Below, piece by piece: positions 12,745-35,539 of a stretch of 41,142 bases of DNA. A model generated the notes under the pieces. The model was not told the DNA's origin. It did not search any database and saw only the letters and a list, made by a program, of their open reading frames with translations. The position numbers and the translations under genes were made by a program. Source of the stretch: a phage; sequence record PZ019083.1. The stretch is one strand, 5' to 3'. Positions within the stretch are counted from its first letter, which is position 1. Each line of letters begins with the position of its first letter.

Positions 12745-12773
12745 ATAGTACCCTATTATATTGGGGTGTGCAA
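12745..12773 (-). promoter_or_regulatory. sigma70-type promoter TTGCAC-17-TACTAT (class A) driving the antisense accessory operon
   Basis: Near-identical to promoters at 34294 and 35511. Confidence 0.55.
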
Positions 12774-12881
12774 GTAATGTGATAGAATAATTTTGCGCCT
12801 AGTGTCGCACACGAAAAGCGGGTGGTTCCCGTCTGGCGCATTTACCGTTAACCTGTAACCTCTTAACCAAAGGATTAAAGA

Positions 12882-13301
12882 ATGAAACTTTCTGATTTTT
12901 ATTTCGAAGAGAAAGCACTGGTAGGCAAGAAGATGCCTATTCTCCTGCCAAATGGCGAAGACTCAGGCGAGTGGCTTAACGTTGTAAGCCCCGATGCGGA
13001 TGCCGCCGTTAAAGCTGGGCGTGCGTTCATTATCGCGTACCGTCGCGGGTTGGCGCGTTTCGAAGAACTGGAAAAAGCCGCCAAAGAATCAGGCGACTAT
13101 ACTGAATATAACCTGGCTATTAACGAACTGGCGGAAGACCTCAACCGGCAACTCGCGGCAGAAGTTGTAAACGGCTGGAGCTTTGACGACGAGCCTTTCT
13201 CTAAGGAAGCATTTAACAAATTGCTCGACCAGTTCAAAGGGCTTGGAACCCAGGTGGCGGCGTTCCATAACGCTGAACGTAAAGCATTACAGGAAAAGTA
13301 G
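12882..13301 (+). CDS. tail assembly chaperone (G-like)
   Basis: 139 aa ORF immediately upstream of tape measure gene, followed by a -1 frame ORF. Confidence 0.5.
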   Translation: MKLSDFYFEEKALVGKKMPILLPNGEDSGEWLNVVSPDADAAVKAGRAFIIAYRRGLARFEELEKAAKESGDYTEYNLAINELAEDLNRQLAAEVVNGWSFDDEPFSKEAFNKLLDQFKGLGTQVAAFHNAERKALQEK

Positions 13302-13666
13302 ACGCGCTGTACAGGTTCGCCACCTACGAGTTTGTGGATAAGCATAAAATCAGAGAGTTTGATTCTATAGCTGACGGTCACGAACAGGCGCTTATCGCGA
13401 TGGGTGTAATCGATAAGAAAAAACGTGCAGCGCGACGGGGTGGGCCAGAATGCCCGCCCCTTTTTATATCCACCTTTGAAACGTACTGTGGCATTAAGTT
13501 TACGCGACACGTGCGCGAGGACGCTGTAGTATTGTTTGCAAGAGAATCCGTTACGTGGCAAGACCTGAAATCCTATCTCGATGTTACGCAAAAACAGCTT
13601 AGCCTGTTCGAGATAGACATTATCATGGGCTTAGAAGCAATCTTTGAAGGTAGAAATCATGGCTGA
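13283..13666 (+). CDS. -1 frame extension of tail assembly chaperone (GT-like frameshift product C-terminal part)
   Basis: Frame -1 open from 13283; shifty A_AAG codon directly before TAG stop of upstream ORF; ends 8 nt inside tape measure gene. Confidence 0.4.
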   Translation, partial: SITGKVDALYRFATYEFVDKHKIREFDSIADGHEQALIAMGVIDKKKRAARRGGPECPPLFISTFETYCGIKFTRHVREDAVVLFARESVTWQDLKSYLDVTQKQLSLFEIDIIMGLEAIFEGRNHG

Positions 13667-15932
13667 TACCGCTAGCTTGATAGTACGAGTATCCTCGACC
13701 GGCGTCGATAAAACCACATCGCAACTGAACGGCCTCACCAAAGCGGCTGGCGCTGCCGCCGCTGCCGTTGTTAGTCTGGAAACCGCTAAGCAGGTGTTCA
13801 GCGCACTGGTGGACTCCCAGCGCAATTTCGATAAGCTAAACTCCGGCCTAATCACAATGACCGGAAGCGCAGAGAACGCGGCTAAGGCTTTCAGCGTTCT
13901 GCAACAGTTCGCAAAAGAGACCCCATACGGTCTCAATCAGGCGGTAGAGGGATTTACCAAGCTCGTTGCGCTCGGTCTGAACCCCAGCAAAGAGGCGCTG
14001 ATTTCCTACGGCAACACCGCGGCGGCTATGGGTAAAGACCTTAATCAAATGATTGAGGCGGTGGCGGACGCCAGTACCTTTGAGTTTGAGCGACTGAAAG
14101 AGTTTGGCATCAAGTCGTCACAGCAGGCGGATACAGTTTCTTTCACGTTCCGCGGTGTTACCACCACGGTTAAAAAGAACTCCGAAGAGATTCAGAAATA
14201 TCTGTTAAACATCGGCAACACCGATTTCGCCGGGGCGATGGAGACGCGCTCGAAGACATTAGATGGTCAGTTGTCGAGCCTCGCTGACTCCTTCGACGGT
14301 CTCGTTCTTGCCGTAGCGCAGTCGGGTTTTGGCGACGCCGTAGGTGAGCAAGCAGCGACAGCGGAAGATGCTATTACCGCACTCACCGACGCCATAGCGT
14401 CTAATGAGATAGCCGCCACGCTCCAGGATTGGGTGACGCTGTTCAACGAGTCGTTCAAGTTTATTTCTGATGCCATGAATGACCTGGCATTCTATACAGA
14501 GGACAAATCAACGGACATGTCCGACTCGCTGGGGGCTATCCCTGACGCTATCCGAGAGTGGTTGCCTGAGATCCAAAGAATAGCGAAGGATATGTATGTA
14601 GAGTTCCAGGCTATCGACATGCAAGCGGCGCTTCTGGCGCAGTCTATTAAGGCTGCCTTCACTCCAGGAGAGACTGCGGAGGGTACATACGCCGCGGGTC
14701 AGGCCGCTATTCAGTTCTTCAAAGACACCGAAAGGGCAAAAAACAAGGCCGAGGCGGACGGGATAACCCAACGCTCGAAGCAGCGTAAAAAAGAAATTGA
14801 GGAACAGCGCAAGCAGTACGACGAGCGTAAGAAGCAAGAAATTGACTTAGCCAGCCTTGTTAATAAAAAGGGTGGAACCGGAGGAACCGGAAACACCAAC
14901 GACAAAGACGCGAAAGCCGCCGCTAAGAAAGCGGAGCAATTGCGTAAACAGGCGCAAGATTATCTCGACACTCTGGCCCGTCAGAACAACGACGAGTTAA
15001 AGGCTATTGATGCGCAGGAACAGCAGAAACTGGCTAAGGCAAAAGAGTTCTACAGCCAGGGCGCGCTGTCACTGAAAGAATACGAGCAAGCAAAAACGGC
15101 TATTGTCCTCGAAGCAGGGCAAAAACGACAAGATGAACTGGATAAACGCCAGAAAGAAGCCCAGGAAAAACAGCAGAAAGGCGACGACTTCATGGCTCAG
15201 ATTATGGGCCAGAACGCTACTGAGCTTGAGCTTCTCGACATCCAGGAACAGCAGAAACTGGCGGTAGCCGATAAGTACCGTGAGCAGGGGCTTATTAACG
15301 AGAAGCAGTATCAGGCCGCGCTTAACGCCATCAACGAGCAATACGCAACCAAGCGTGCCGATGCAACGGCAACGGCCTTCGGTAACATGGCTTCAAACAT
15401 CGGGTCTGCGTTGGGTGAGGCTTCTGGCGCGTACAAGGCATTCGCTATCGTACAGGCCACCATAGCCACGTACACCGCAGCTATCGAGGCGTACAAGTCC
15501 ACGGCGGCTATCCCTGTAGTCGGCCCGTTCCTGGCCCCTGTAGCCGCTGCCGCTGCCGTTGGGGCAGGTATGGCGCAGGTTTCCGCTATAAGGTCCGCAC
15601 GTGAACAGGGCGGTCAATTATCCGCGGGGCAGGCTTCCACCATCGCAGAACGCGGTAAACCAGAAGTTATCATGCCTGCTGGTGCATCACGTGTGCGCAC
15701 CGCGCAGCAGATGAAGGAAATTATGGGGCAAAACGGGTCTTCTTCCGGCCCGTCTAATGTTACCATCGTAAACAACACGAGTTCTCAAATCGGCAATGTA
15801 TCCACAGAACAGGATGATGAGGGCCGTCTACGCATCATCATCGAAGAGCAAGTGGCGGCATCTTTGCAGAACAGCAACAGTAAGATTAGCAAGGCCCGCA
15901 AGGCCACAAGAAATGCGCCGGGGTTCAAATAA
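13659..15932 (+). CDS. tail tape measure protein
   Basis: Long Ala/Gln/Lys-rich coiled-coil protein, ATG 13659 with AAGGTAG RBS. Confidence 0.8.
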   Translation: MADTASLIVRVSSTGVDKTTSQLNGLTKAAGAAAAAVVSLETAKQVFSALVDSQRNFDKLNSGLITMTGSAENAAKAFSVLQQFAKETPYGLNQAVEGFTKLVALGLNPSKEALISYGNTAAAMGKDLNQMIEAVADASTFEFERLKEFGIKSSQQADTVSFTFRGVTTTVKKNSEEIQKYLLNIGNTDFAGAMETRSKTLDGQLSSLADSFDGLVLAVAQSGFGDAVGEQAATAEDAITALTDAIASNEIAATLQDWVTLFNESFKFISDAMNDLAFYTEDKSTDMSDSLGAIPDAIREWLPEIQRIAKDMYVEFQAIDMQAALLAQSIKAAFTPGETAEGTYAAGQAAIQFFKDTERAKNKAEADGITQRSKQRKKEIEEQRKQYDERKKQEIDLASLVNKKGGTGGTGNTNDKDAKAAAKKAEQLRKQAQDYLDTLARQNNDELKAIDAQEQQKLAKAKEFYSQGALSLKEYEQAKTAIVLEAGQKRQDELDKRQKEAQEKQQKGDDFMAQIMGQNATELELLDIQEQQKLAVADKYREQGLINEKQYQAALNAINEQYATKRADATATAFGNMASNIGSALGEASGAYKAFAIVQATIATYTAAIEAYKSTAAIPVVGPFLAPVAAAAAVGAGMAQVSAIRSAREQGGQLSAGQASTIAERGKPEVIMPAGASRVRTAQQMKEIMGQNGSSSGPSNVTIVNNTSSQIGNVSTEQDDEGRLRIIIEEQVAASLQNSNSKISKARKATRNAPGFK

Positions 15933-17332
15933 TGACTGACTTATATTTCCCACGTAGCCTTAAGCCTATCGTATCGAAAGGCTACTCAATGACCAGACGT
16001 AACAACGTCTGGAGCGTTGATTTAGCCGGTGGCGGGGTGCGTCAGGGCCGCGACACGTATTACGACGTGTTCCCAATAAGCGTAACCCTGATTACATCGG
16101 CGCTGGGGCGGCAGGCGTTTCTGTCGTTCCTCGAAAAAGTAGACGGTGGTGCGTCAAGTTTCTGGATGGCGCACGACTTCGGCATGGGTATTGAGGATTA
16201 CCAGGTAACAATCACGTCCACCATCGCTGAGTCCACCGAAGATGGCATTAACTGGACGATTACTTTCACGGCAACCGCCGAGAAATCGCCGTTCCAGGAC
16301 CTTGAGAACCAGTGCCTGATTAACAATCTTCCGGATTTGTACGGTTGTTACGGGGACTGTCTGGGTAGTTTCCTGAAAATATATGCGAACTACGAGACGA
16401 CGTTCCCGCGCATCTGGAGCAATGAAGGGCCTGCAGGATACCCGCCGATTAACCTTCTGGCGTCGACTCTTGATAGCCGCATTGTGTATGACGGGCCGCA
16501 GGTTTATTACATCAACCGAAACGGCAATCTTGTGCAGTCCGCCGCCGGTGAATGGCCACTTACGTTTATCGATGGCTCGGCAGTTGGGCGTGTGCCGCCG
16601 GAGGCATCAGTAATTAACAGATTCCTATATTCAAGCAATTTCTCTTCGTCAAACTGGAACAAAGGTTTGGTGAGTGTATCAGTATCTGAAACAGGTGTTT
16701 TAACAGCCGCGGGCACGTACGACGTAACTGCTACCGCCACAAGAGGTAACCACCTAATAAACCAGACTGTAGATGTTAGCGTTGGTGTTGGCGACATGGT
16801 TACTTTTAGTTTCTTCGCAAAAGCAAACGGATACAATTTCATACGGATGTACGTGCGAGAACTTCCTACAGTATTAGGCTCAGCAGTTGTTGATTTGCGG
16901 GATGGTAGCATTTATTCCGGCCCAGGCGGTACAGATGTAACCGACGTAGGCGGAGGGTGGTTCCGAATATCGGAGACGATTACCGCAACAGAAGATAAAA
17001 CAATGAGCATACGGATGGACGCATGGATATATTCAGACGGAGTTACCGGGTCATTTACGGGGGATGGCGTTTCAGGGGTTAAATTATCCGCGGCTACTGT
17101 AGAGGTAAACCAAAATACAACATCCCCGGTAATAACCGATGCCGTTGTTGTCACCCGCTCGACAGCGTCCGCAAAAGTAACCATGAATGGCGCGACAAGC
17201 ATTGACATTACCTATTCCGACGGCACTGTGGTAAACGTTCCGTCTGTAGATGGTTACGCCACCATCCCGCAGGCCGATTCTGCGTGGGGTAGTAAGTACA
17301 TCACCCGTATTGATTTTAATGTGGACGGTTAA
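15932..17332 (+). CDS. minor tail protein (distal tail / tip component)
   Basis: ATGA overlap with tape measure; 466 aa beta-rich. Confidence 0.5.
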   Translation: MTDLYFPRSLKPIVSKGYSMTRRNNVWSVDLAGGGVRQGRDTYYDVFPISVTLITSALGRQAFLSFLEKVDGGASSFWMAHDFGMGIEDYQVTITSTIAESTEDGINWTITFTATAEKSPFQDLENQCLINNLPDLYGCYGDCLGSFLKIYANYETTFPRIWSNEGPAGYPPINLLASTLDSRIVYDGPQVYYINRNGNLVQSAAGEWPLTFIDGSAVGRVPPEASVINRFLYSSNFSSSNWNKGLVSVSVSETGVLTAAGTYDVTATATRGNHLINQTVDVSVGVGDMVTFSFFAKANGYNFIRMYVRELPTVLGSAVVDLRDGSIYSGPGGTDVTDVGGGWFRISETITATEDKTMSIRMDAWIYSDGVTGSFTGDGVSGVKLSAATVEVNQNTTSPVITDAVVVTRSTASAKVTMNGATSIDITYSDGTVVNVPSVDGYATIPQADSAWGSKYITRIDFNVDG

Positions 17333-17335
17333 TTT

Positions 17336-17851
17336 ATGAGTCAGGAATCAGTAGAAGCCGCCTATCGCCGCAAGCTGGCCTCAAATCCAGACGGCGAGAT
17401 GGATTACATCACGTTGCAAATCAGCCACCCGTTGCTGTCGAAGACGTACTATCTTGTGCGCGGGTTGCAGGAACTTACGGCAACACTGGAAACCGGCGAA
17501 ACAATCACGTTCGAACCTACTCCGATGGAGGCGTCGGGGGCCGCTAACAACAGCGATATGGACCAGACGACGACGTTTACTCTACCGGATATCCTCAATC
17601 AACTGGATGATGAGATGGATAAAATCCCGATGAGTAATACCGAGTTGCCGAAATTCGTCTTCCGCCGTTACGTCAGTACCGACCTGTCTTATCCAGCTGA
17701 CGGCCCGGTCGTGTACGAGTTACAGGCCATCAACCAGGAGAAGGGCGAGTTCTCCGCAGATGTCGGTACACCTATGCTGAACCAACGAAGCACTGGTATA
17801 CTAATGACACCTAAAGAGATACCGTTATTACGCGGCCTGTTGACCACATGA
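17336..17851 (+). CDS. minor tail protein (L-like position)
   Basis: 171 aa between tip proteins. Confidence 0.4.
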   Translation: MSQESVEAAYRRKLASNPDGEMDYITLQISHPLLSKTYYLVRGLQELTATLETGETITFEPTPMEASGAANNSDMDQTTTFTLPDILNQLDDEMDKIPMSNTELPKFVFRRYVSTDLSYPADGPVVYELQAINQEKGEFSADVGTPMLNQRSTGILMTPKEIPLLRGLLTT

Positions 17852-23481: not shown

Positions 23482-24903
23482 TTATCGTTTCCTTCTCTTC
23501 ATATAATTAAGTAGTTCGTCCTGTACAGACCTTTTCTCGTCTGTACGCGCGGCGACAACTTCATCAAGAGTATTTCGGGCTATTATTTGATAAATGAATA
23601 CAGACCGTTTGTATCCAGATTGCATCTGCCTTACCGGGCCTATACGCTCGATAACCTGCAGATAATGTTCCAGGTTCCACCCCTGACTAATAAATGCCAT
23701 GTGGTGTCCGCCATGTTGTAGCGACAGCCCGTGGCCCGCAGAAGCTGGGTGTATCAGGAGCATAGGTATCTCACCGCGGTTCCACGCTTCCATCTGCTTA
23801 TTGCCCTTAGCACCTTTTGCAAATGCCTGTGCTTGGGGGAATCGCTTAAGGATGCGCTCCAGTTCGTGCTTGAACTGATAGGCGACCAGTAACGGCGCAC
23901 CCTGTAACTCCTCAACAATTGACTCAAGCGCATCCAGTTTCGTGTCGTGCACTTTCTCCCATTCTTTGGTTGCTTCGCCGTCTTCGCCCGTCACATACAC
24001 AGCACCGGAAGCAATCTGCAAGCACTTAGCCGTTTTAGCGGCGGCGTTGGCGGCCTGCACCTCCCCACTCTCCAGTTCCGCGATTAACTTTTTCTCCATG
24101 TCGTCGTACGCCTGACGCGCTTTCTTCGGCAGGTCGATTTCAACCGGTACAATAATCGGCGCTTCACAACCAAACCACTCGGCGGGGTCGATGGTCAGGC
24201 TGATGTCTTTCATCTTCTGATGAATCTCATTATCGGCACCAGGTCGCGCGTGATATTCACGCGCCATAGCCGACTTACCTTTCTGTACCGAGTTAAACCA
24301 GCGGTCGGTGAATGCTGTGTACGATGAACCGAGTCGCTCACCGGCGTCGATAAACCAGTTCTGACCCCACAAGTCTTTGAGGCCGTTTGGCGACGGCGTA
24401 CCAGTCAGGTTGATGAAACGCCTAACCTTACCGAACGCCACTTTACTAAGCGCCTTTGCTCGCTTGCTTCCGCCAGAACGGCTACGGAATGATTTAAGCT
24501 TCGTGCTTTCATCAGCAACAATAACGGTAAAAGGCCAGTCGTCTTTGCCGTAGTAGTCAATCAGCCACTCGATAACCTCGTAGTTGGTGCATACCACGTT
24601 AGCGTCTGACTCCAGAGCCGCGATGCGGCGCTTCTCCGAACCTGTTGCATCGGCGACACTCAGACACGGGAAACCCCACTTAGTTTGTTCTGCGGGCCAC
24701 GTACCAGACGCAACGCGCAACGGGGCAAGGATTAACACGCGGTCCTCTTCGGTAAGCTGCCCGTTGCGAAACAGTCGGTTGAGCACCCACATAGTAGAGG
24801 AGGTTTTACCCCCTCCCATGCCGCACCAGATATTACAGCGAGGGTGTTGCAACATGAACGAAGTCATGAGCTTCTGGTATTCACGCCTTTGAAACTTACT
24901 CAT
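23482..24903 (-). CDS. SNF2/DEAD-like superfamily 2 DNA helicase
   Basis: Walker A GMGGGKT, DExx box VADEST, helicase C-terminal motifs. Confidence 0.8.
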   Translation of the reverse strand: MSKFQRREYQKLMTSFMLQHPRCNIWCGMGGGKTSSTMWVLNRLFRNGQLTEEDRVLILAPLRVASGTWPAEQTKWGFPCLSVADATGSEKRRIAALESDANVVCTNYEVIEWLIDYYGKDDWPFTVIVADESTKLKSFRSRSGGSKRAKALSKVAFGKVRRFINLTGTPSPNGLKDLWGQNWFIDAGERLGSSYTAFTDRWFNSVQKGKSAMAREYHARPGADNEIHQKMKDISLTIDPAEWFGCEAPIIVPVEIDLPKKARQAYDDMEKKLIAELESGEVQAANAAAKTAKCLQIASGAVYVTGEDGEATKEWEKVHDTKLDALESIVEELQGAPLLVAYQFKHELERILKRFPQAQAFAKGAKGNKQMEAWNRGEIPMLLIHPASAGHGLSLQHGGHHMAFISQGWNLEHYLQVIERIGPVRQMQSGYKRSVFIYQIIARNTLDEVVAARTDEKRSVQDELLNYMKRRKR

Positions 24904-25091
24904 TTTGCCACCAGAACTAACTCTTTACGTCCGAACGCCGTAACGTTACCAGTTACATCTTCGATAACCAGTTTACCGTTCGACTCGACAAACACCGTAT
25001 CTACGGCAACAGGGCGACGGGTCTTAACGTTGAAAATCAGGTCACCAGGTACGATGTCACGTGCTGGTTTGCGGTCATATTCGTGTTTCAT
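24900..25091 (-). CDS. hypothetical protein (63 aa)
   Basis: ATGA coupling to helicase gene; immediately downstream of promoter at 25125-25153. Confidence 0.4.
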   Translation of the reverse strand: MKHEYDRKPARDIVPGDLIFNVKTRRPVAVDTVFVESNGKLVIEDVTGNVTAFGRKELVLVAK

Positions 25092-25121
25092 TTCTCAATT
25101 CCTTATATTGTTGGTGTAGGG

Positions 25122-25406
25122 CTAACTATAATAGTTAGCTATTAGGTCGTCAACCTGTTTAAACGAACCAACGACAAAAACATTCGCGCCACGTTTACGC
25201 ATCCGCGCGTGTTCACGTAGCTGGTGCGGGTCTGGCTTCGTGTTTTCGTCTTTCTTAACCTCGACGAACCAGACTATGCCGCCGGGGAGAATTACCAGCA
25301 GGTCAGGAGCGCCTGAGCGCCCCTCGTAAGACAGCTTACGAACGAGGCCACCAATGGCCTCGAACATCTCTTTTGCGTATTTCTGAATCTTGCCTTCCGG
25401 GGTCAT
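25122..25406 (-). CDS. VRR-NUC domain nuclease
   Basis: Motif GAPDLLVILPGGIVWFVEVK typical of VRR-NUC PD-(D/E)XK fold. Confidence 0.65.
   Translation of the reverse strand: MTPEGKIQKYAKEMFEAIGGLVRKLSYEGRSGAPDLLVILPGGIVWFVEVKKDENTKPDPHQLREHARMRKRGANVFVVGSFKQVDDLIANYYS
25125..25153 (-). promoter_or_regulatory. sigma70 promoter TTGACG-17-TATAGT (class B) embedded in 3' end of VRR-NUC gene
   Basis: Same architecture as promoters at 28680 and 30799. Confidence 0.5.
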
Positions 25407-27998: not shown

Positions 27999-28625
27999 TT
28001 AGCGGCGACGACGTTCGCGGCGCGGTGCTTCATCTTCTTCGTCGTCTTCCAGGTCATTGACGCTTGCGGCGACTTTAGAACCACCAAACGCCTTACCTTC
28101 GCCGACGTATTTAATTCCCAGCAGTTTAACACCGAGGACTTTATATTTCTGGCTGAACCAGATTTCAACGCTTACGTTAGCGACGCATCCGCTGTAAACC
28201 TGTTCGCCTTCAATCTGTTCACCGTCTACATTGAAGTCCTGTTCTACCTGAGTCTCACCTTTTTTAGAGGTTATAATCAGCGGCTGTTTCTGCGCCTTCG
28301 CTTTGAAGTAGAAGCCTTCCGGGAAGTCTTCAAAGGGATTGTCACGCTCGGCAATGTCTTTAACAGCACATTTATCCATGTGCTTACCTTCGCCGTAGTT
28401 GGACCTCATCCACTTCTCTGCGGCGGCAGCACCTAACGCTTCTTCAACTACGGCGTAAACAGTGTCGTAAAGCGCATCGATTTGCGCATGGTCTGGCGGC
28501 AGGATAATAGTCGCGCTGTACTGGCCTTTAGTAATTGAGCCATCATCGTTTTCGCGGTCTTTTTCGCGTTCGAATACGTTAACCCAAGCAGTGTTTACTT
28601 TACGCAGATTTAATGTCAGTCCCAT
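27999..28625 (-). CDS. putative ssDNA-binding protein (DUF2815-like)
   Basis: 208 aa with acidic C-terminal tail, adjacent to polymerase and Cas4-like nuclease. Confidence 0.45.
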   Translation of the reverse strand: MGLTLNLRKVNTAWVNVFEREKDRENDDGSITKGQYSATIILPPDHAQIDALYDTVYAVVEEALGAAAAEKWMRSNYGEGKHMDKCAVKDIAERDNPFEDFPEGFYFKAKAQKQPLIITSKKGETQVEQDFNVDGEQIEGEQVYSGCVANVSVEIWFSQKYKVLGVKLLGIKYVGEGKAFGGSKVAASVNDLEDDEEDEAPRRERRRR

Positions 28626-28679: not shown

Positions 28680-28708
28680 ACTATAATAGCTAACTATTCA
28701 GGTGTCAA
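28680..28708 (-). promoter_or_regulatory. sigma70 promoter TTGACA-17-TATAGT (class B)
   Basis: Consensus -35, 17-bp spacer containing GAATAGT element. Confidence 0.6.
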
Positions 28709-29954: not shown

Positions 29955-30223
29955 ACCCTGTTCTCCCACTGGTCGATTAAATGTCGTGTCTTATGCCCAC
30001 AATGCATAGCCCACCCATACATCGACTCAAAAACATAAAAGTCAGGCTTGGCGAAAGTCGTGCGCTTAATCTGTGACACGTGACGGCCTAAAGATATAGG
30101 CCGCGGTACTTTGCCTAAGTACGCCATCTCTTCCATCTGGTGCGCACCGGACGGCGCACGCAACAGCCATAGTGCCTCCGTGTTGTCCCGCCTGTCTACG
30201 GCCCGGTAGAGTTGGTAAATCAT
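29951..30223 (-). CDS. hypothetical protein (90 aa)
   Basis: Coupled upstream of nuclease gene. Confidence 0.35.
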   Translation of the reverse strand: MIYQLYRAVDRRDNTEALWLLRAPSGAHQMEEMAYLGKVPRPISLGRHVSQIKRTTFAKPDFYVFESMYGWAMHCGHKTRHLIDQWENRV

Positions 30224-30266
30224 AATTCCGACCCTCAGTTAAAGCGGCCCGAAGGCCGCGAGATAG

Positions 30267-30767
30267 TTAGTCTTCTTCGAAATACTTGTTCTTGATTGCC
30301 GTCAGGCGTTCAAGGTACTCAGCAAGGTCTTCATCTTTAATCGCGGCAATCTTCATCTTCTTACCGGTGAACTCCTCCAGCAGTTCATCAGAATCATCAC
30401 ACGCGGCATCGCTCGGACCTTCGTTAATGGCGTCGTCGATAGCCTGAATCTGGTCACGCAGAGACTGGTAATCGACTTCTTCTTTCTCTTCTTCCGGCTC
30501 TGGTGTCGGCTCCTCTACTTTAGCTTTACGCGGCTTGCGTTTTGGCTTCTCTTCTTCAACCGGTTTAGTATCAACTACGTCTTCACCTTCGACCGGGATT
30601 TCTTTTGATCCTTCTTCTGCACACTTGGCTACTGCTTCTTTGGTATACGCTACCGTCTCTACTTCCAGAGGCGCGGAAACCTGAACAACTTGTTTCACGC
30701 TGTTCGCAGCAATCAGTTCATGAGCAACTACGAAACGTTCCAGTAATACTAAGAATTTCTCTAACAT
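30267..30767 (-). CDS. highly acidic hypothetical protein with short basic patch
   Basis: E/D-rich (PEPEEEKEE, DDSDELLEE) plus KPKRKPRKAK. Confidence 0.4.
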   Translation of the reverse strand: MLEKFLVLLERFVVAHELIAANSVKQVVQVSAPLEVETVAYTKEAVAKCAEEGSKEIPVEGEDVVDTKPVEEEKPKRKPRKAKVEEPTPEPEEEKEEVDYQSLRDQIQAIDDAINEGPSDAACDDSDELLEEFTGKKMKIAAIKDEDLAEYLERLTAIKNKYFEED

Positions 30768-30798
30768 TTGTTTCTCTCCTCTCGTTTGGTATGGGCTA

Positions 30799-30827
30799 AC
30801 TATAATAGCGAACTATTCACATGTCAA
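30799..30827 (-). promoter_or_regulatory. sigma70 promoter TTGACA-17-TATAGT (class B), overlaps operator repeat R1
   Basis: Consensus hexamers; spacer carries ACTATTCACATGTCAA. Confidence 0.6.
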
Positions 30828-30855
30828 TGGGCTTTTCTAAAATAATTAATATGGT

Positions 30856-30871
30856 ACTATTCACATATCAA
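30856..30871 (+). promoter_or_regulatory. operator repeat R2 (ACTATTCACATATCAA) overlapping -10 TACTAT of the Cro-like gene promoter
   Basis: 15/16 identical direct repeat of 30812-30827, 44 bp apart. Confidence 0.45.
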
Positions 30872-30891
30872 CTGACTAAGGAGTAATTGAC

Positions 30892-31107
30892 ATGCAACCA
30901 TCTGAACTAGGCATTCGTGTAGAACAACGCCGTAAAGAACTTGGCATCTCCCAGCGCCGTCTGGCTGTCCTGACCGGGGTTTCCCAGGGCGCGATTAACC
31001 AGCTTGCGCTCGGGGTAACTCAGGACGTCCGCCCGGCGACGCTGTTTAAACTGGCGGAAGTGCTGCAAGTAGACGCCAAGTGGCTGGCGTTAGGTGAAGG
31101 GGCTTAA
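30892..31107 (+). CDS. Cro/CI-type (XRE family) HTH transcriptional regulator
   Basis: Motif GISQRRLAVLTGVSQGAINQLALG; 71 aa. Confidence 0.65.
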   Translation: MQPSELGIRVEQRRKELGISQRRLAVLTGVSQGAINQLALGVTQDVRPATLFKLAEVLQVDAKWLALGEGA

Positions 31108-31122
31108 CGCCCCTTTCTTTTT
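31098..31122 (+). terminator. intrinsic terminator
   Basis: AGGGGC-TTAAC-GCCCCT + TTTCTTTTT, stop codon inside loop. Confidence 0.55.
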
Positions 31123-31124
31123 AT

Positions 31125-33395
31125 CTATTCCAAATCCTCCTCTGTCACCACCAGCATTTCATTCGGTTCGTATATTGTCTTCGGAATCTTGTTATCGTTT
31201 ATACCCCACGGCAATCGGTATTGCTTAGGGATAGGCCTGTTGTTGTTACCCAGACCTGAGACGATAACCCCGGCCTCGTGCATCTCTTCCAGTTTCTTTC
31301 GAAGGTCGTTATTAGCGTTAATCGGTACGCCGTAACTATCTTCTTTCGCTGCTTTGACGATAGCCGACATGGAAAACCCCCGCTTGTCGTCACCCTGCTC
31401 CTGCAATTTACCTAACGCGTAAATAACCGTAGCTTCTTTGGTATCCAGTTTCTCGAACTGACCTACCTTTTCTTTAACAGCCGCTTTACCTTCCTTTGTC
31501 AGCCCTTCTTCCCGCTCTTTCTCCTCGTCGGTCTTGAATGGTTCGAAACCCCACGGCATCAGCACAAGCGCCTTGTGTGGTTCAGGCAGGTCGAGGTTTA
31601 CGATTGTGCCGTATTCCTCCGTGCTTCCGAGGAACTCAACCGCGCGGTACTCTTTCGGTGGTGGCGCTTCACGGAACTGTACCGACTCCAGTACCATGCC
31701 AACCGTCTTCTGTTGAGGCCCGTGCTTAAATTTCGAGTGGTATACATTTATTTGACGTTCGGTCGCGCGTTCGATTGTTAGTTCCACGTCGACACCAGCG
31801 TACAGCGCCCCACTGCCACGGGCTTTCTTTCCACCTTTCGGCGTATGGTGGACAACGCCTACCGCGGCTTTAGTTGCGTCGCGTACTTCTTTCAGGATGG
31901 CGATAACTTTACCCATGCCGATTGTCGTTGATGAACTGTTCTCGTCGAACTTATCAATCGTCAGGGCCAGCGTCTGGTTGAGGGTGTCGAACGCAACCAT
32001 ACCAATAGGCTCGTCGCCCGCAGTTTCGCGCATTAACTTAATCAGGCTTTTCAGTTTCCCGACTTCGCCCATGTCGATAACATGTACATAATCTTTACCT
32101 TCCTCGCCATATTTAGCCGCTAGTGCGTCGATACGTGTGCGCGTAGCTGCGCCACCTTCACCGTCGATATAGAAATGGTGGCAACGCTGGGTATCTGCCC
32201 CGGCAAATCTGTATCCGGCGGCGCTAAGGTACATCATCCCCAGCGTATAAAACGATTTGTACGTTCCAGACTCCCCGACGATATCCCAGATGCAGTCTGT
32301 CGGCATGTATCCTTCTACGACGAAATCAGCCTTTACCGGTTCCGGTAACTCGTCCTCCTCTGAGTCCTCGTCGTCTTCCAGGTCGTCCAGACTGCATGAA
32401 ACTGACTCACGCGCACCCCAGCCGATGGCCTCGGCGACTTCACTGAATGGAAGACCAGTCGCATCACACGCATACTTCCACACCTCTTTCGGTGACATGC
32501 CCTCGGTTGCCGTGATGTCTGTGTCGTGAATCATGGTTACGTTAGGTGCTTCGTACCCCTCGCGCGGGAAGCACAGCAGGAAGTCGTCCGGGCGCGGGGT
32601 CGGGTCGCTGTAGTTTTCTGCGTGTTCCGGTGTGGCGGGCATCTTAAGTCCACGCGGCGTCATGATGCCGCCGTATTCGAACGCCAGTGCCTCGAACGCA
32701 TCAGTAAATGCCGTGCGCAGTTCTTCTGGTATCTGGTAATCCGATGCGCTGCTCACCTCGTAATCCGGGATGCCTTCCAGTAACTCGTCCGGGTCAATCA
32801 GGTCGTTACGGCGCGACCAGATAACGGTAGAGCCGACAGGCGGCAGGTACATCGGCTGCGACAGAGTGAACCCGCTGTGGTCCGCACCCATGCCTTTGAA
32901 GAAGTGCTCCAGCAATCCATGACGAACACGGATGATGCCACCACCTTCGACCGGGCGGCCCAGCGGCATGACGACGCGAAAGCGCGGTGACTCATCGGTA
33001 TGTGATGCCGTGGTGTAGAGGCACATAGCCAGGCGGCTACGCTTAACCAATCGCACCGCCTCCTGATACTCGTCAGGTGTTGCACTGTCGAAGTCCAGAT
33101 ACGCCAGCGACGATTTGTTTACAGACGCATCGCAGCGATAGAAGAAGCCTTTACGCGCCTGCTTAAAGTCCCCAGTTTCCGGGTCTTTTACGGTGCTGTG
33201 CGTTGAGTCGCACGCGGCGGTGATATACCCCGGCGCGGTCTTCGGGTTAATTCCGTCGCGAACAGCATCGAGCGGCTGGATTAACTCTTTCAGGTCGTCC
33301 AGTGTTGCCGTGTGTGTGGTTCTGACGTTTATATCCTTTTTCTCCGCCCGCGCGTTGCGACGAGACCACGAGTAGGATAAAATTACATCGGACAT
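31125..33395 (-). CDS. primase-polymerase domain fused to RecA/DnaB-like ATPase (replicative primase-helicase)
   Basis: Walker A GESGTYKS, Walker B-like VAFDT, N-terminal primase-polymerase-like region. Confidence 0.65.
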   Translation of the reverse strand: MSDVILSYSWSRRNARAEKKDINVRTTHTATLDDLKELIQPLDAVRDGINPKTAPGYITAACDSTHSTVKDPETGDFKQARKGFFYRCDASVNKSSLAYLDFDSATPDEYQEAVRLVKRSRLAMCLYTTASHTDESPRFRVVMPLGRPVEGGGIIRVRHGLLEHFFKGMGADHSGFTLSQPMYLPPVGSTVIWSRRNDLIDPDELLEGIPDYEVSSASDYQIPEELRTAFTDAFEALAFEYGGIMTPRGLKMPATPEHAENYSDPTPRPDDFLLCFPREGYEAPNVTMIHDTDITATEGMSPKEVWKYACDATGLPFSEVAEAIGWGARESVSCSLDDLEDDEDSEEDELPEPVKADFVVEGYMPTDCIWDIVGESGTYKSFYTLGMMYLSAAGYRFAGADTQRCHHFYIDGEGGAATRTRIDALAAKYGEEGKDYVHVIDMGEVGKLKSLIKLMRETAGDEPIGMVAFDTLNQTLALTIDKFDENSSSTTIGMGKVIAILKEVRDATKAAVGVVHHTPKGGKKARGSGALYAGVDVELTIERATERQINVYHSKFKHGPQQKTVGMVLESVQFREAPPPKEYRAVEFLGSTEEYGTIVNLDLPEPHKALVLMPWGFEPFKTDEEKEREEGLTKEGKAAVKEKVGQFEKLDTKEATVIYALGKLQEQGDDKRGFSMSAIVKAAKEDSYGVPINANNDLRKKLEEMHEAGVIVSGLGNNNRPIPKQYRLPWGINDNKIPKTIYEPNEMLVVTEEDLE

Positions 33396-33453
33396 GTTGT
33401 ATTTCCTTCAGCAAGTAATTTGGCCTCGGCGTTCACCGCGTCGGGGCTTTCTT

Positions 33454-33729
33454 TTATTCCAGGTCGCGGGAGATATTACCCTCGGGGACCAACACTTTTC
33501 CAATACTTCTCGCTTTCCCGTTAAGCGGCGTTGCTCTTGTTGCCCGATAAAACTTTCCTTTATTAAGAACCTCTCCGTGTTGCTCAAGAACACTTAAAGC
33601 ATGTTTAATCGGATTTACACCGTAATTATCTAACCGGTATCTACGAAGCCCGTCTAGTGTAAAAGCGCCGTTCGCCTCGGTCAGTCTGCGTGCGCACATT
33701 AATACGTGTTTCTGGAATTTAGTTAGCAT
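33454..33729 (-). CDS. hypothetical protein (91 aa)
   Basis: Coupled downstream of small HTH gene. Confidence 0.35.
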   Translation of the reverse strand: MLTKFQKHVLMCARRLTEANGAFTLDGLRRYRLDNYGVNPIKHALSVLEQHGEVLNKGKFYRATRATPLNGKARSIGKVLVPEGNISRDLE

Positions 33730-33898
33730 CTTTTACGTTCTCCTTAATCCAAGCCTCCACGGTAGCGCGGTCAAATGTGCCTGGCTGCCGGTAGCCGTTA
33801 ATAACCCGGCAACACTCGGGGAACTTACCTGACCGAAGCCAGCGATTAAGTGTCATAGGGGAAACTCCGATTAAGTCTGCTACTTCTTTCTGTGTCAT
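33719..33898 (-). CDS. small HTH DNA-binding protein (AlpA/excisionase-like fold)
   Basis: MTQKEVADLIGVSPMTLNRWLRSGKFP; ATG 33898 with AGAGGG RBS. Confidence 0.5.
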   Translation of the reverse strand: MTQKEVADLIGVSPMTLNRWLRSGKFPECCRVINGYRQPGTFDRATVEAWIKENVKDAN

Positions 33899-33927
33899 TT
33901 TACACACCCTCTTTATCAAGTGAAACA

Positions 33928-33956
33928 ACTATAACACCTACAATAACTAAACACAA
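33928..33956 (-). promoter_or_regulatory. candidate promoter TTGTGT-17-TATAGT for minus-strand replication operon
   Basis: -10 identical to class B promoters; weak -35. Confidence 0.35.
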
Positions 33957-33960
33957 CCTA

Positions 33961-33988
33961 TTGACAAAATAAAATGTAGCTGTAAAAT
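33961..33988 (+). promoter_or_regulatory. sigma70 promoter TTGACA-16-TAAAAT
   Basis: Consensus -35; faces a 350-bp noncoding stretch. Confidence 0.5.
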
Positions 33989-34210
33989 CAACGTATCGAA
34001 GGACCTTAGTTCAGAATTACTTAGAAACAGTATTCTTAAGTCTCTGGTGACCAAAGCCCGGCCCATAAAGGACGGGCGCTGAGAGTCACTTCGACAACGT
34101 TAGTATCTAAGTTTCCTCAAAGTAACAGCAAGTAGCAAGAAAGCCCCCGTCTATTTAAATTTTGCCATATGGTATAAATCATTGATTTGCAAGCTCACTC
34201 ACTCACTCTT

Positions 34211-34226
34211 GGTGCCTTCGGCACCA
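34211..34226 (+). other. GGTGCC-TTCG-GGCACC hairpin (UUCG tetraloop)
   Basis: Perfect 6-bp stem, followed by GTTCGTTTCGTTTCG. Confidence 0.4.
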
Positions 34227-34293
34227 CGTTCGTTTCGTTTCGCTCGCTACCCCCATTAAACGAAAGAATCACAACGGCAACGTAACTATTCTC

Positions 34294-34322
34294 TTGCACA
34301 CCCCAACATAATAGGATACTAT
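34294..34322 (+). promoter_or_regulatory. sigma70 promoter TTGCAC-17-TACTAT (class A)
   Basis: Near-identical to 35511 and 12745(-); ACTATTC copies at 34285 and 34318. Confidence 0.55.
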
Positions 34323-34356
34323 TCACTTATCGGAACGAGACAGAGGAGTGAGGGTT

Positions 34357-34542
34357 ATGTTTAAGAAGGGTCAGTTGGTGAGAATTTTGGAGACAGGGGG
34401 GTTAGCGGTTATTTCATTCGCACACCACAAAGAATGTAGTGTTTATTTTGCAAAATCTTTAACGGGGTCCTATCTCACCGTGTTATACGCACAAGATATG
34501 AAACTCATCGGCAACAATTTTAAATTCAAAGGGGCGAAGTGA
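34357..34542 (+). CDS. hypothetical protein (61 aa)
   Basis: GAGGAG RBS 7 nt upstream. Confidence 0.45.
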   Translation: MFKKGQLVRILETGGLAVISFAHHKECSVYFAKSLTGSYLTVLYAQDMKLIGNNFKFKGAK

Positions 34543-34745
34543 TGGAAGAATTATTTGAAGAACTGAAACATCATGAGTTCGAGGAGATATATTTTGTAGC
34601 TGAACGCTACGAGGTGCATTTAGTGGACGGGGTTACAATTATTACAATGGATAGCCAGCAAATGCTAAATAGCTTACGGGCTATACGAACGGCATCTAAT
34701 CATGATGCTCGTGCCGACGACTCCGAGGGAGGTTGCCGTGAATAA
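34542..34745 (+). CDS. hypothetical acidic protein (67 aa)
   Basis: TGATG overlap coupling; AAGGGG RBS. Confidence 0.4.
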   Translation: MEELFEELKHHEFEEIYFVAERYEVHLVDGVTIITMDSQQMLNSLRAIRTASNHDARADDSEGGCRE

Positions 34746-34805
34746 TTACCCGTTCATTTTAATTGTCAGCGCCGTTTATGTGGTGCACGCGTTGCGGGGG
34801 TTGGT

Positions 34806-35000
34806 ATGAGTCCCTATAACGAATCCCGCTTACGCCGTCTGATTGGTGGTCTGCGCGCCGCCGAGTTTGTTGTTGAATGTTGGGAGAAGGTGCAATATGC
34901 CCCATGGAAGTCGTGGCATTTGGCTCATGCTAAGGAGGTAGCACAGTACCGTGAGTACAAGTTAAACAGTTTCCTTAAACACCACGGGGTTGAGTTATGA
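34806..35000 (+). CDS. hypothetical protein (64 aa)
   Basis: ORF with ATG start. Confidence 0.4.
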   Translation: MSPYNESRLRRLIGGLRAAEFVVECWEKVQYAPWKSWHLAHAKEVAQYREYKLNSFLKHHGVEL

Positions 35001-35140
35001 GAGAAGCATTTGAACGGTGGGCCGTAGTCGAGGGTCTGCCGGTTAACAAGGGTTCAAAGAAAGAGTACCTGAACGTTAAGACGCGTCTCGCGTGGCGGGC
35101 GTGGAAAGCTGGTGTGCAAGCTGTGATGAATAAGGGGTGA
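34997..35140 (+). CDS. hypothetical protein (47 aa)
   Basis: ATGA overlap with upstream stop. Confidence 0.35.
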   Translation: MREAFERWAVVEGLPVNKGSKKEYLNVKTRLAWRAWKAGVQAVMNKG

Positions 35141-35143
35141 GAC

Positions 35144-35350
35144 ATGAGTGAGTGGGTTAAGTGTAGTGAGCGGATGCCGGGGCTAGGCAAACCAGTTTTG
35201 GTCGTCAGTAGTATGGGCGGTGTGGTCCAGAACAATGTGTACGAGTGGGATGGGGTAACTTGGTGTGATTTCCGGGCGGACTACGGGGAACACGCGAAGG
35301 AAGTGTTTTCTCACTGGATGCCGTTACCCGAGCCGCCGTCGCTGGTGTAA
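35144..35350 (+). CDS. DUF551-like protein
   Basis: C-terminal SHWMPLPEPP signature recalled from DUF551; AAGGGG RBS. Confidence 0.45.
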   Translation: MSEWVKCSERMPGLGKPVLVVSSMGGVVQNNVYEWDGVTWCDFRADYGEHAKEVFSHWMPLPEPPSLV

Positions 35351-35510
35351 CAGGTGGTGTAACAGGTCAATAGTTTGAGATTTTACTGAGTGACTTACGC
35401 TGCTACACAGCAGCGTATCATTTTTCTCATTTTTGTTCTATTTCACCAAACGCAACAATCGAAGCGACTATTGCAGGAGATGCAACAATACAAACACCAA
35501 TAAAATTTAC

Positions 35511-35539
35511 TTGCACGCTAATATAGAATAGGTTACTAT
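35511..35539 (+). promoter_or_regulatory. sigma70 promoter TTGCAC-17-TACTAT (class A)
   Basis: Consensus-like; ACTATTCA overlapping -10/+1. Confidence 0.55.

Follow-up and report, generated by a model that had tools for sequence, protein, structure and literature searches.

Dispersed promoters of a Kagunavirus-like phage share a 14-bp two-fold symmetric element, a candidate operator for a Cro-like protein

Genome context and three related promoters

The window (the whole stretch of DNA analyzed here, 41,142 bp, sequence record PZ019083.1) is the genome of a Kagunavirus-like (Guernseyvirinae) virulent siphophage, whose host is E. coli. It contains exactly three matches to TTGCAC-N17-TACTAT on the two strands, at 12745-12773 (minus), 34294-34322 (plus) and 35511-35539 (plus), as the original prediction had it. 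These are sites A, F and G. No further match appeared in the whole window when one mismatch was allowed. The expectation from dinucleotide shuffles is 0.08, and three matches were reached in 0 of 100 shuffles. The three sites and their surroundings are as follows.

11103-11122: bidirectional terminator, closes the antisense operon of site A
11127-12729, minus: antisense accessory operon, putatively driven by site A
11127-11357, minus: 76-aa ORF in this operon
11354-12574, minus: metallophosphoesterase/DNA-repair exonuclease in this operon
12523-12729, minus: Imm_superinfect protein in this operon
12744-12773, minus: site A, -35 TTGCAC 12773-12768, -10 TACTAT 12750-12745
12757-12744, minus: site A palindrome AATAGGGTACTATT, centre near -12.5
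12783-12755, minus: alternative promoter ATCACA-17-TATAAT overlapping site A
34210-34226: terminator-like hairpin 5' of F
34294-34323, plus: site F, -35 TTGCAC 34294-34299, -10 TACTAT 34317-34322
34310-34323, plus: site F palindrome AATAGGATACTATT
34357-35350, plus: small-gene operon headed by F
35396-35417: terminator closing the F operon, also the terminator-like hairpin 5' of G
35511-35540, plus: site G, -35 TTGCAC 35511-35516, -10 TACTAT 35534-35539
35527-35540, plus: site G palindrome AATAGGTTACTATT
35571-38310, plus: operon headed by G (DUF7170, small ORFs, two holins, endolysin)
37274-38310, plus: holin/endolysin genes, the downstream part of the G unit

Each site lies 5' of a gene string that runs in the same direction, about 25-45 nt from the first ATG. 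The earlier view that the sites head three transcription units is supported, and they are plausible promoters for the host RNA polymerase. The unit behind G, described before as small genes alone, extends into the holin and endolysin genes. The label "class A" given to these promoters belongs to T7 nomenclature and does not apply here. The match of A, F and G to the sigma-70 consensus is 7/12 (TTGCAC 3/6, TACTAT 4/6), and because it is so low a generic promoter scan had omitted them.

Sites A and F agree in 35 of 37 positions, cTTGCACACCCCAA[T/C]ATAATAGG[G/A]TACTATTCACTTA, so the predicted match over about 35 bp is accurate for this pair. For G it is generous: 28 of 36 positions, from TTGCAC through CACTTA, are shared with A/F. 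Site G retains the -35, AATAGGnTACTATTCA and the beginning of the leader, and it differs in the spacer from the -35 to the palindrome. About 36 Kagunavirus contigs together contain 51 exact copies of a 32-bp promoter cassette, with 1-3 locations per genome, and in Bas70 an additional copy precedes an antisense moron. These copies speak for cassette duplication, one of the two options originally offered. The ACCCCAA spacer segment, which had been taken as a sign of either a regulator or a duplicated cassette, is confined to A and F; at G it varies among phages, which therefore points to common descent of the cassette rather than to contact with a regulator. The near-identity of A and F outside the palindrome probably arose when a 32-bp unit of promoter and operator was copied; other Kagunaviruses also have this cassette ahead of other antisense morons.

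A 14-bp palindrome at promoters across the genome

In A, F and G the -10 is covered by a 14-bp palindrome, AATAG-N4-CTATT. This is the commonest palindrome with 5-bp arms in the window by an unbiased count, with six exact copies and four with one mismatch (0.86 expected). Searching for the 18-mer ATAATAGGNTACTATTCA of the original prediction with up to three mismatches also gave matches at 28683, 30802 and 30846 (six matches, 0.04 expected); A, F and G are therefore only part of a family. The original prediction had overlooked the palindrome, and with it the promoter sites B, C, D and E, some of which have the opposite orientation.

25125-25153, minus: site B, TTGACG-17-TATAGT, palindrome 25130-25143 in the spacer, centre near -18.5
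24900-25091 and helicase operon, minus: putative targets of B
28680-28708, minus: site C, TTGACA-17-TATAGT (11/12), palindrome 28685-28698 in the spacer
27999-28625 (ssDNA-binding protein) and DNA polymerase, minus: putative targets of C
30799-30827, minus: site D, TTGACA-17-TATAGT (11/12), palindrome 30804-30817 in the spacer
30267-30767 and exonuclease operon, minus: putative targets of D, divergent from the XRE gene
30848-30861, plus: site E, one-mismatch palindrome AATATGGTACTATT, -10 TACTAT 30855-30860
30816-30843, plus: alternative promoter TTCACA-16-TAAAAT at site E, whose start would fall inside the E palindrome
38732-38765, plus: site H, imperfect palindrome ACTAGTTGACTATT 38732-38745, promoter TTGACT-17-TATATT
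4972-4985, plus: site J, imperfect palindrome AATAGTTGACTTTT with TTGACT, 5' of spanin/head genes
3344-3357, plus: site I, imperfect palindrome TATAGTATGCTATT

Judged by how related phages are annotated, nine of the ten copies fall outside coding sequence and one falls within the final codons of a gene; site B is located in the 3' end of the resolvase ORF 25122-25406. All ten overlap promoter-like hexamers, and the seven strong sites, A-G, all overlap the -10 or the spacer (7/7). Sites B, C and D have the form TTGAC[AG]-17-TATAGT, match the sigma-70 consensus at 10-11 of 12 positions and are strong minus-strand promoters by this measure. Together with A, F and G they have the -10 A2/T6, a TTG-type -35 and a spacing of about 17 bp. 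Site E is directly 5' of the XRE gene and 44 bp from D.

The palindrome does not keep one position relative to the promoter. Its centre is near -12.5 in A, F, G and E, near -18.5 in B, C and D, and near -33.5 in H. In the SETP3 orthologue of A it lies 3 bp nearer the -35, and the -10 is TATTAT. Fixed contacts of sigma-70 cannot account for this variation.

Selective conservation of the arms

For the orthologous sites B, C, D and F, we compared the consensus sequences of Kagunavirus and Jerseyvirus. Identity extends over the arms at 39 of 40 positions, the central N4 at 5 of 16 and the flanks of ±10 at 52 of 80 (Fisher, arms against centre 3e-7, arms against flanks 3e-5). At site G, across 31 loci, the arms are constant while the sequence separating the -35 from the palindrome varies freely. 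The exact AATAG-4-CTATT occurs 175 times in 723 kb of Kagunavirus loci and 42 times in 262 kb of Jerseyvirus loci, and 0 times in 102 kb of Cornellvirus loci. The corresponding Cornellvirus promoters carry TATTA-N6-TAATA (TATTAG-N4-sTAATA), for example TTGCAA-6-TATTAGTGTCGTAATAT, a symmetric change of both arms relative to the AATAG type. Serratia phage Tsm2 retains AATAG-N4-CTATT at the orthologous promoters. From these alignments, a shared 14-bp two-fold symmetric element is under selection, which lends weight to the common regulator that had been the other option of the original prediction.

The similarity might be explained with no regulator at all, by recent duplication of the cassette and the constraints of sigma-70, the palindrome being a by-product of an AT-rich -10-like sequence. 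The identity of A and F extends to spacer bases that vary at G, the 32-bp cassette recurs within genomes, and in class 1 sites the right arm overlaps the -10. We nevertheless regard this explanation as quite unlikely. The left arm lies at -19 to -15 (class 1) or -25 to -21 (class 2), positions at which sigma-70 has no base-specific contacts, and the register shifts by 3-6 bp among sites and lineages. The contrast between arms and centre across genera and the joint change of the Cornellvirus arms also argue against it. Finally, B, C and D share the arms, yet they are not copies of the A/F cassette.

The motif itself was already known. PHIRE 20-mers are listed as "phage-specific promoters" for VB_EcoS-Golestan (PMC7203180, Table S4) and are assigned to a phage RNA polymerase for fBC-Eco01 (PMC9825357, Table S2). 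Among these 20-mers, seven per genome (e.g. TAATAGGATACTATTCACTT, TGAATAGTACCCTATTATAT; consensus tgAATAGTa-ccTATTat-T), are the orthologues of A, F, G, D and E. Both genome papers provide lists only and mention neither the two-fold symmetry nor a connection to an HTH gene, nor the sites whose palindrome is in the spacer, nor the Cornellvirus variant. That the 20-mers are promoters of a phage-encoded RNA polymerase, as published for fBC-Eco01, is hardly credible to us, despite their recurrence. The annotations of Bas70, SETP3, TS6 and Tsm2 include no RNA polymerase gene, and the structural and replication genes of these phages are matched by the large ORFs of the window. Sigma-70-type -35 and -10 hexamers with 17-bp spacing are always present, and the extended motif TATAATAGnnnnCTATTCA points in the same direction as the genes at A, F, G and E but is antisense to them at B, C and D.

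The XRE protein as candidate reader

30892-31107, plus: XRE/HTH_3 protein, 71 aa, proposed repressor, monocistronic
31086-31111: terminator at the end of the XRE gene, overlapping its stop codon
33719-33898, minus: HTH_17 (Xis/MerR-like) protein, 59 aa, first gene of the leftward early helicase-primase operon

The XRE gene has sites D and E as its neighbors, and these two lie between divergent promoters. Its product matches HTH_3 (E=1e-12). The gene is syntenic in Kagunavirus (at least 94% identity), Jerseyvirus (48%), Cornellvirus (39%) and Serratia phage Tsm2 (42%), and its product is the sole HTH protein detected in all four lineages. The best solved relatives are 434 Cro and 434 repressor; the phmmer alignment with 434 Cro covers the full length (E=7e-6). 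The AlphaFold model (pLDDT 82) has five helices, and its top Foldseek match is 2cro (40% identity, TM 0.71-0.77), with 1pra and 3cro also found. By both sequence and model the protein thus has an HTH_3 domain in the five-helix fold of 434 Cro, and like 434 Cro it is a single-domain protein of 71 aa.

434 operators are 14 bp long, with conserved outer bases and an uncontacted centre. The likeness to OR1-3 and OL1-3 is close: a two-fold symmetric site of 14 bp, inside the range of about 14-18 bp for operators of this type, half-sites conserved over the outer 5 bp, and a looser central 4 bp. The layout is also similar. The operators overlap core promoters, and a pair (here D/E) sits beside the regulator gene between divergent promoters. 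The half-site differs, being AATAG here and ACAAG in 434.

The correspondence between protein and DNA is less tidy. The recognition helix starts with GVSQ in the three AATAG lineages and with GVTQ in Cornellvirus. It reads QGAINQ in Kagunavirus and QSLITH in Jerseyvirus, though the core arms are identical, and the Jerseyvirus and Cornellvirus helices differ only subtly, though the arms differ. Protein-DNA covariation is therefore suggestive, not clean. Also counting against XRE as the reader, Jerseyvirus has lost the left arm of E and has a mismatch in D, and the Cornellvirus equivalent of D is not a clean palindrome.

The palindrome could be an operator read by the HTH_17 protein instead. This protein has a domain match (E=5e-9) and shows 70-86% conservation across nearly all loci of Kagunavirus and Jerseyvirus, the two large genera with AATAG-N4-CTATT. 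It is undetectable in Cornellvirus, whose palindrome differs. Judged by gene order, it rather than XRE is probably the HTH gene classed as "early" in the Kagunavirus RNA-seq paper. We give this reading a slim chance. Tsm2 has AATAG-N4-CTATT at the orthologous promoters and no HTH_17 homologue, and Cornellvirus has an equivalent palindrome system without the protein. The HTH_17 recognition helix is SPMTLNRW in the window type and TRQTINNW in the Bas70 type, with the palindromes unchanged, and the gene's own promoter region has no full palindrome. The nearest solved relatives, 6ama/6amk (E=5e-3), are presumably BldC, which binds direct repeats head-to-tail, not palindromes.

Another factor, either a host DNA-binding protein or a phage protein without a recognizable DNA-binding domain, is an unlikely reader. 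The majority of early ORFs have no Pfam or PHROG function, and the imperfect covariation of XRE helix and arms would leave room for it. However, Jerseyvirus and Cornellvirus both infect Salmonella and have different palindromes, which argues against a conserved host factor. XRE is the sole recognizable DNA-binding gene common to the four lineages and adjoins a site pair, and the 5-4-5 geometry suits a 434-type HTH dimer.

The element could also serve as the loading site of a Q/AlpA-type processive antiterminator, which would join RNA polymerase at the promoter and allow read-through of the many intrinsic terminators inside the gene strings of this genome. The lambda QBE and the Pseudomonas aeruginosa AlpA-binding element both lie between -35 and -10 (PMC9371919), as does the palindrome of B, C and D. 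The AlpA element is 6 bp long, asymmetric and bound by one protomer; AlpA has contact residues up to position 142 and an N-terminal ring in the RNA exit channel (PMC9371919). Here a palindrome occurs at a variable register, and the sole HTH proteins, of 59 and 71 aa, have no additional domain. We therefore consider antitermination very improbable.

Proposed regulation by XRE

Binding, footprint or transcription-start data for Guernseyvirinae phages were not found in the searchable literature, and the sole RNA-seq study of a Kagunavirus gives gene-level time classes, which are too coarse here. The analysis shows the family of sites, its symmetry, selective conservation and lineage variant, and the phyletic pattern and fold of the protein; the start points of transcription, binding to the element, the protein responsible and the direction of its effect are inferred. 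A-G may be host sigma-70 promoters with embedded operators of the phage's Cro-like XRE repressor, with a probability of roughly 0.55. The low sigma-70 match of A, F and G (7/12) counts against this reading. An XRE dimer would set one recognition helix on each 5-bp arm, the two separated by a single turn of the DNA helix, leaving the central 4 bp uncontacted. Because each site overlaps the -35, the spacer or the -10, bound XRE should occlude RNA polymerase. XRE would then repress the replication, accessory and small-gene/lysis operons across the genome, as well as its own gene via the D/E pair.

Such an arrangement would differ from that of 434. The phage lacks a cI partner, an integrase and a lysogeny module, and its family has been described as virulent. 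In the annotations of Bas70, SETP3, TS6 and Tsm2 there is neither an integrase nor a second repressor, and the genome papers of related phages report no lysogeny genes. With a single XRE gene and neither a cI-type partner nor integration functions, the locus is not a lambdoid immunity region with a cI-cro switch. Its operators would be dispersed over at least seven promoters, 23 kb and three registers rather than gathered in a single immunity region.

Dispersed-operator regulons are known from the P1 C1 operators, the mycobacteriophage L5 gp71 "stoperators" and the conserved inverted repeats of phiC31. In these, one phage repressor acts at many short genomic sites, at or just 3' of promoters, and controls most units, as is proposed here. 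Those phages are temperate, however, and their repressors maintain lysogeny. The P1 and L5 sites are asymmetric, unlike the palindrome here, and the three repressors are unrelated or only distantly related to the XRE protein.

A broader suggestion, which we hold as doubtful, is that one 71-aa Cro-like protein times nearly the whole transcription program of a virulent siphophage that encodes neither an RNA polymerase nor a sigma factor. If true, nearly every promoter would carry an operator, in one of three registers (-10, spacer or, imperfectly, -35), and the order of operon shut-off would depend on the quality and register of the operator. Relatives that superinfect might also have their early promoters silenced by this repressor. 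Genus-specific "immunity" (AATAG-type or TATTA-type) would then exist in phages that never lysogenize.

Imperfect copies of the palindrome cover the -35 in two or three putative promoters that point rightward. At H, a possible weak operator by its sequence, the -35 TTGACT is at the palindrome centre, with a terminator 5' and a small-gene/terminase unit 3'. Site J may likewise be a weak operator, and its promoter match is poor. Site I has a terminator (3324-3339) just 5' and a head-morphogenesis gene 3'; it is kept in Bas70 and is listed by PHIRE in Golestan.

Genome context

The window falls in the genus Kagunavirus, subfamily Guernseyvirinae, as judged by megablast. Its mosaic pieces show about 90% identity to the E. 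coli phages K1G, K1H, K1ind1-3, Ro145clw, Golestan and the BASEL phages Bas70-76. Several hundred related genomes are present in the phage collection that was searched. The gene order matches that of the annotated relatives Bas70 and SETP3.

Layout of the window
1-22.8 kb, plus strand: terminase, head and tail genes
11.1-12.7 kb: antisense accessory block
22.9-33.9 kb, minus strand: replication genes
34.3-41.1 kb, plus strand: small genes, lysis genes and further small genes

The annotations of the related phages Bas70, SETP3, TS6 and Tsm2 contain no RNA polymerase gene, integrase or second repressor. An Rfam scan of the whole window matched no family.

A palindrome in dispersed promoters

The original prediction described three almost identical promoters of the form TTGCAC-N17-TACTAT. 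The window holds exactly three such sequences (A, F and G below), where 0.08 are expected by chance, and a window scan with one mismatch allowed gave no further match. The claimed identity over about 35 bp is true of A and F, which agree at 35 of 37 positions (counted from the C before TTGCAC through CACTTA, read off the alignment), but G agrees at only 28 of 36 (TTGCAC to CACTTA). All three match the sigma-70 consensus at 7 of 12 positions only and are therefore omitted by a generic promoter scan, which at A gives an overlapping ATCACA-17-TATAAT (10/12) instead. We argue from the sequence context that they are probably real promoters, since each precedes a string of co-directional genes whose first ATG lies 25-45 nt downstream, terminator-like hairpins precede F and G, and TTGCAC and TACTAT are unchanged across dozens of related phages.

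The three sites share a two-fold symmetric element, AATAG-N4-CTATT, with its right arm over the -10 and its centre near -12.5. While the sites of the predicted family are real, this symmetry and the further palindrome-bearing promoters had been missed. The window contains six exact and four one-mismatch copies, against 0.86 expected, and in an unbiased count of all palindromes with 5-bp arms this is the commonest of the genome, above terminator stems.

Palindrome sites in the window
A, 12745-12773, minus: palindrome over the -10
B, 25130, minus: exact copy in the spacer; helicase operon
C, 28685, minus: exact copy in the spacer; SSB/DNA-polymerase operon
D, 30804, minus: exact copy in the spacer; exonuclease operon
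E, 30848: one-mismatch copy, AATATGGTACTATT, 44 bp from the 30804 copy and directly upstream of a 71-aa HTH gene
F, 34294-34322, plus: palindrome over the -10
G, 35511-35539, plus: palindrome over the -10
H, 38732; J, 4972; I, 3344: imperfect copies in intergenic, promoter-like places

At B, C and D, the copy lies within the 17-bp spacer of a strong minus-strand promoter (TTGAC[AG]-N4-AATAGnnnnCTAT-TATAGT, 10-11/12 to consensus), with its centre near -18.5. In two of the three imperfect copies, H and J, the palindrome is centred exactly on a -35 TTGACT; Bas70 conserves all three copies. At A, F, G and E the extended motif TATAATAGnnnnCTATTCA points along transcription; at B, C and D it is antisense. 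A reading of the symmetry as a bidirectional promoter was rejected: the best opposite-strand -10 (TATTAT) has no -35, the two starts would be about 29 bp apart, and at G there is no gene to serve.

The ORF of the Holliday-junction resolvase (25122-25406, minus) contains promoter B and its palindrome (25122-25153) in its last codons, so that B is an internal promoter for the helicase genes downstream. The single mismatch of H (38732-38745) affects the left arm in Kagunavirus (ACTAGTTGACTATT) but the right one in Jerseyvirus (AATAGTTGACTAGT). Both forms resemble the trp operator half-site, CTAG. This likeness to TrpR sites and that to OxyR sites (ATAG-N7-CTAT) were discarded, as the spacing or the half-site does not fit.

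Two conserved families of 5' leaders can be told apart, and they cut across the promoter classes. It seems that promoter modules have recombined with leader modules.

Leader families
AACGAGA..GGAG: after F (34330-34356), G (35547-35570), D (30768-30798, minus) and H (38775-38790)
ACACCAACAAT[G/A][A/T]AAGG: after A (12715-12740, minus) and B (25092-25120, minus)

Selection on the arms

The comparison set comprised two complete relatives (Bas70 and SETP3), 37 Kagunavirus loci and 12 Jerseyvirus loci, the loci spanning up to 20 kb around the HTH gene. Every member carries the palindrome at syntenic promoters. Exact copies number 175 in 723 kb of Kagunavirus loci and 42 in 262 kb of Jerseyvirus loci. 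Between the Kagunavirus and Jerseyvirus consensus sequences of four orthologous sites, the arms are identical at 39 of 40 positions, as against 5 of 16 in the central four bases and 52 of 80 in the ten-base flanks (Fisher 3e-7 versus the centre and 3e-5 versus the flanks). The ten bases that separate the -35 of G from its palindrome vary freely among phages (gctaatatag, actgggggag, actaagatag, acacagatat and others) while the arms are constant.

The palindrome is also kept while its register shifts by 3-6 bp. In the SETP3 orthologue of A (TTGCAT-7-AATAGTGTCCTATTAT), it lies 3 bp nearer the -35 than in the window, and the -10 is a different hexamer, TATTAT. Because the register shifts, and because the left arm lies where sigma-70 reads no bases, the palindrome is not a core promoter element; its behaviour is that of a site bound by a symmetric dimer. 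That an operator exists here and is under selection we hold to be very probable.

In Cornellvirus (Salmonella phage TS6 and four further loci), AATAG-N4-CTATT is absent from 102 kb. The matching promoters bear TATTA-N6-TAATA instead, for example TTGCAA-tcatag-TATTAGTGTCGTAATA-t and TTGACA-ctgtta-TATTACTGTTCTAATA-t, with a -10 TAATAT overlapping the right arm. Compared with the Jerseyvirus form TAATAG-N4-CTATTA, both arms have changed in mirror fashion, the pattern that would be expected of an operator co-evolving with its dimeric reader. A host factor is an unlikely reader, since Jerseyvirus and Cornellvirus both infect Salmonella. One locus (L053; XRE 38% identical, with ACAAC-N4-GTTGT pairs upstream of an HTH gene) was dropped as evidence of covariation, because the contig is unrelated and GC-rich and encodes a CI-like repressor of 220 aa.

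The candidate reader

The window has genes for two small HTH proteins.

Small HTH genes
30892-31107, plus: XRE protein, 71 aa, HTH_3 (E=1e-12); monocistronic, terminator over the stop codon, flanked by D and E
33719-33898, minus: HTH_17 protein, 59 aa, Xis/MerR-like (E=5e-9); first gene of the leftward helicase-primase operon

XRE is at least 94% conserved in Kagunavirus and is 48%, 39% and 42% identical in Jerseyvirus, Cornellvirus and Serratia phage Tsm2, respectively. The HTH_17 protein is a genuine rival as reader of the palindrome, because it is 70-86% conserved across Kagunavirus and Jerseyvirus (70-71% identity to the Bas70 and SETP3 homologues by tblastn) and is not detected in Cornellvirus. 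In Tsm2, which represents a fourth lineage of the Guernseyvirinae, the orthologues of B, C and F bear AATAG-N4-CTATT, yet neither tblastn nor Pfam on its early ORFs found an HTH_17 homologue. The palindrome system of Cornellvirus likewise lacks this protein, and XRE is the sole HTH common to all four lineages. The HTH_17 recognition helix varies between alleles inside Kagunavirus, whereas the palindromes do not. Its promoter region has no full site, while a pair of sites surrounds the XRE gene. Its nearest solved relatives are 6ama/6amk (E=5e-3), structures of BldC, a binder of direct repeats, and this also speaks against it.

Among solved structures, XRE comes closest to 434 Cro and 434 repressor, both by sequence (E=7e-6 over the full length) and by predicted fold. 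With a single-sequence AlphaFold model (pLDDT 82), the top Foldseek match was 2cro (40% identity, TM 0.71-0.77), and the 3cro Cro-OR1 complex was also matched. The 434 operators are 14 bp long, with conserved outer bases and an uncontacted centre; this palindrome has the same 5-4-5 geometry. The recognition helix of XRE starts with GVSQ in the three AATAG lineages and with GVTQ in Cornellvirus, a difference that is compatible, if weakly, with XRE as the reader.

In Cornellvirus (TS6, L054, 1205-4095) and Tsm2 (L060, 6799-9567), the XRE gene lies upstream of the helicase-primase gene on the same strand. HTH_17 has this place in Kagunavirus and Jerseyvirus, whose XRE gene forms a convergent unit of its own.

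Proposed regulation

Bound to the arms, an XRE dimer would lie over the -10 at A, F, G and E, occupy the spacer at B, C and D, and cover the -35 at H and J. RNA polymerase would thereby be excluded, and XRE would act, in the manner of Cro, as a global repressor of three groups of operons: accessory, replication and small-gene/lysis. The XRE gene would be negatively autoregulated through D and E. At an alternative XRE promoter, TTCACA-16-TAAAAT (30816-30843), the centre of D would lie near -40 and that of E near +4; speculatively, this layout recalls OR2/OR3 at lambda PRM. The full statement, a selected operator bound by XRE with repression as the outcome, we judge slightly better than even (about 0.55). 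The system would best be filed as a repressor-operator system of the 434-Cro type. For that type it is unusual in belonging to a virulent phage and in being spread over nearly all promoters.

A 365-bp non-coding gap (33929-34293) separates the leftward HTH_17 operon from F. Its back-to-back promoters share a -35 region (TTGACA, 33961-33966, plus, 11/12 with TAAAAT; TTGTCA, 33967-33962, minus). They have no full palindrome site (33940-33988) and may be unregulated immediate-early promoters. The plus-strand promoter would give a non-coding transcript of about 250 nt ending at a hairpin (34210-34226) just before F. The gap, which has no Rfam match, could be an sRNA, leader or origin region.

In temporal RNA-seq of the Kagunavirus phage K1B4, sampled at 5-120 min and without start sites, an HTH-domain gene is among four early genes and the imm gene is late (PMC12645636). 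We matched K1B4 genes 004 and 008 to the XRE and HTH_17 genes by gene order alone.

A portable promoter cassette

The shared sequence had been ascribed either to a common regulator or to duplication of a promoter cassette. Both hold; that interpretation is partly supported and is substantially extended here. Outside the operator, A and F have ACCCCAA[T/C]AT in common, a stretch that G does not conserve. About 36 IMG/VR contigs hold 51 copies of an exact 32-bp cassette, TTGCACACCCCAAYATAATAGGNTACTATTCA, a single genome having it at up to three places. The names of these contigs overlap heavily with those of the Kagunavirus contigs recovered by the XRE protein. Bas70 has a further copy before an antisense moron near the head genes, and the list for phage fBC-Eco01 includes two identical copies (PMC9825357). 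Repetition within and across genomes suggests that the cassette is a portable promoter-operator unit, which would place accessory genes under a common regulator.

The extra A-type cassette (5138-5151 in Bas70) is found in Bas70, Golestan and fBC-Eco01, where it drives a small antisense gene that lies between those for head decoration and spanin; neither that gene nor its cassette is present in the window (at about 4890-5230). The promoter and leader of G (35511-35575) are kept up to the ATG, and the first ORF behind them differs. At least a dozen unrelated ORF starts occur there among 31 Kagunavirus loci, so this is a hypervariable gene slot after a fixed expression cassette.

Relation to published work

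The Guernseyvirinae (Kagunavirus, Jerseyvirus and Cornellvirus) are among the most commonly isolated phages of E. coli and Salmonella for therapy and biocontrol. To our knowledge, their transcription programme is essentially uncharacterised. Our literature searches found no paper on operators or a repressor regulon in this subfamily, and nothing relevant on promoters of Jersey-like phages or on AATAG/CTATT operators. Cro-type repressors and dispersed operators are textbook matter in temperate phages, so the reading of XRE and its operator is not conceptually new.

The motif itself is already present in the PHIRE output of two genome papers, on Golestan (PMC7203180) and on fBC-Eco01 (PMC9825357). 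The former lists seven "conserved promoter sequences", e.g. TAATAGGATACTATTCACTT (PMC7203180). Neither paper notes the symmetry, the HTH gene or the spacer class (PMC7203180, PMC9825357). We reject the published assignment, made for fBC-Eco01, to promoters of a phage RNA polymerase: related annotations hold no such gene, and the motif occurs in both orientations.

If the proposal is true, it corrects this mis-assignment and defines a concrete regulon, in which a single small repressor acts through a defined 14-bp operator on at least seven promoters, and of which a natural variant in specificity exists. Phage engineering would also gain a compact, orthogonal repressor/operator pair whose operator already comes set in promoters.

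A GC-rich hairpin, AAGGCCCCnnnnGGGGCCTT, is present in four near-identical copies (3325, 4894, 11106 and 22835), all at operon boundaries. It is terminator-like on both strands and looks like a repeated terminator cassette, a counterpart to the repeated promoter cassette.
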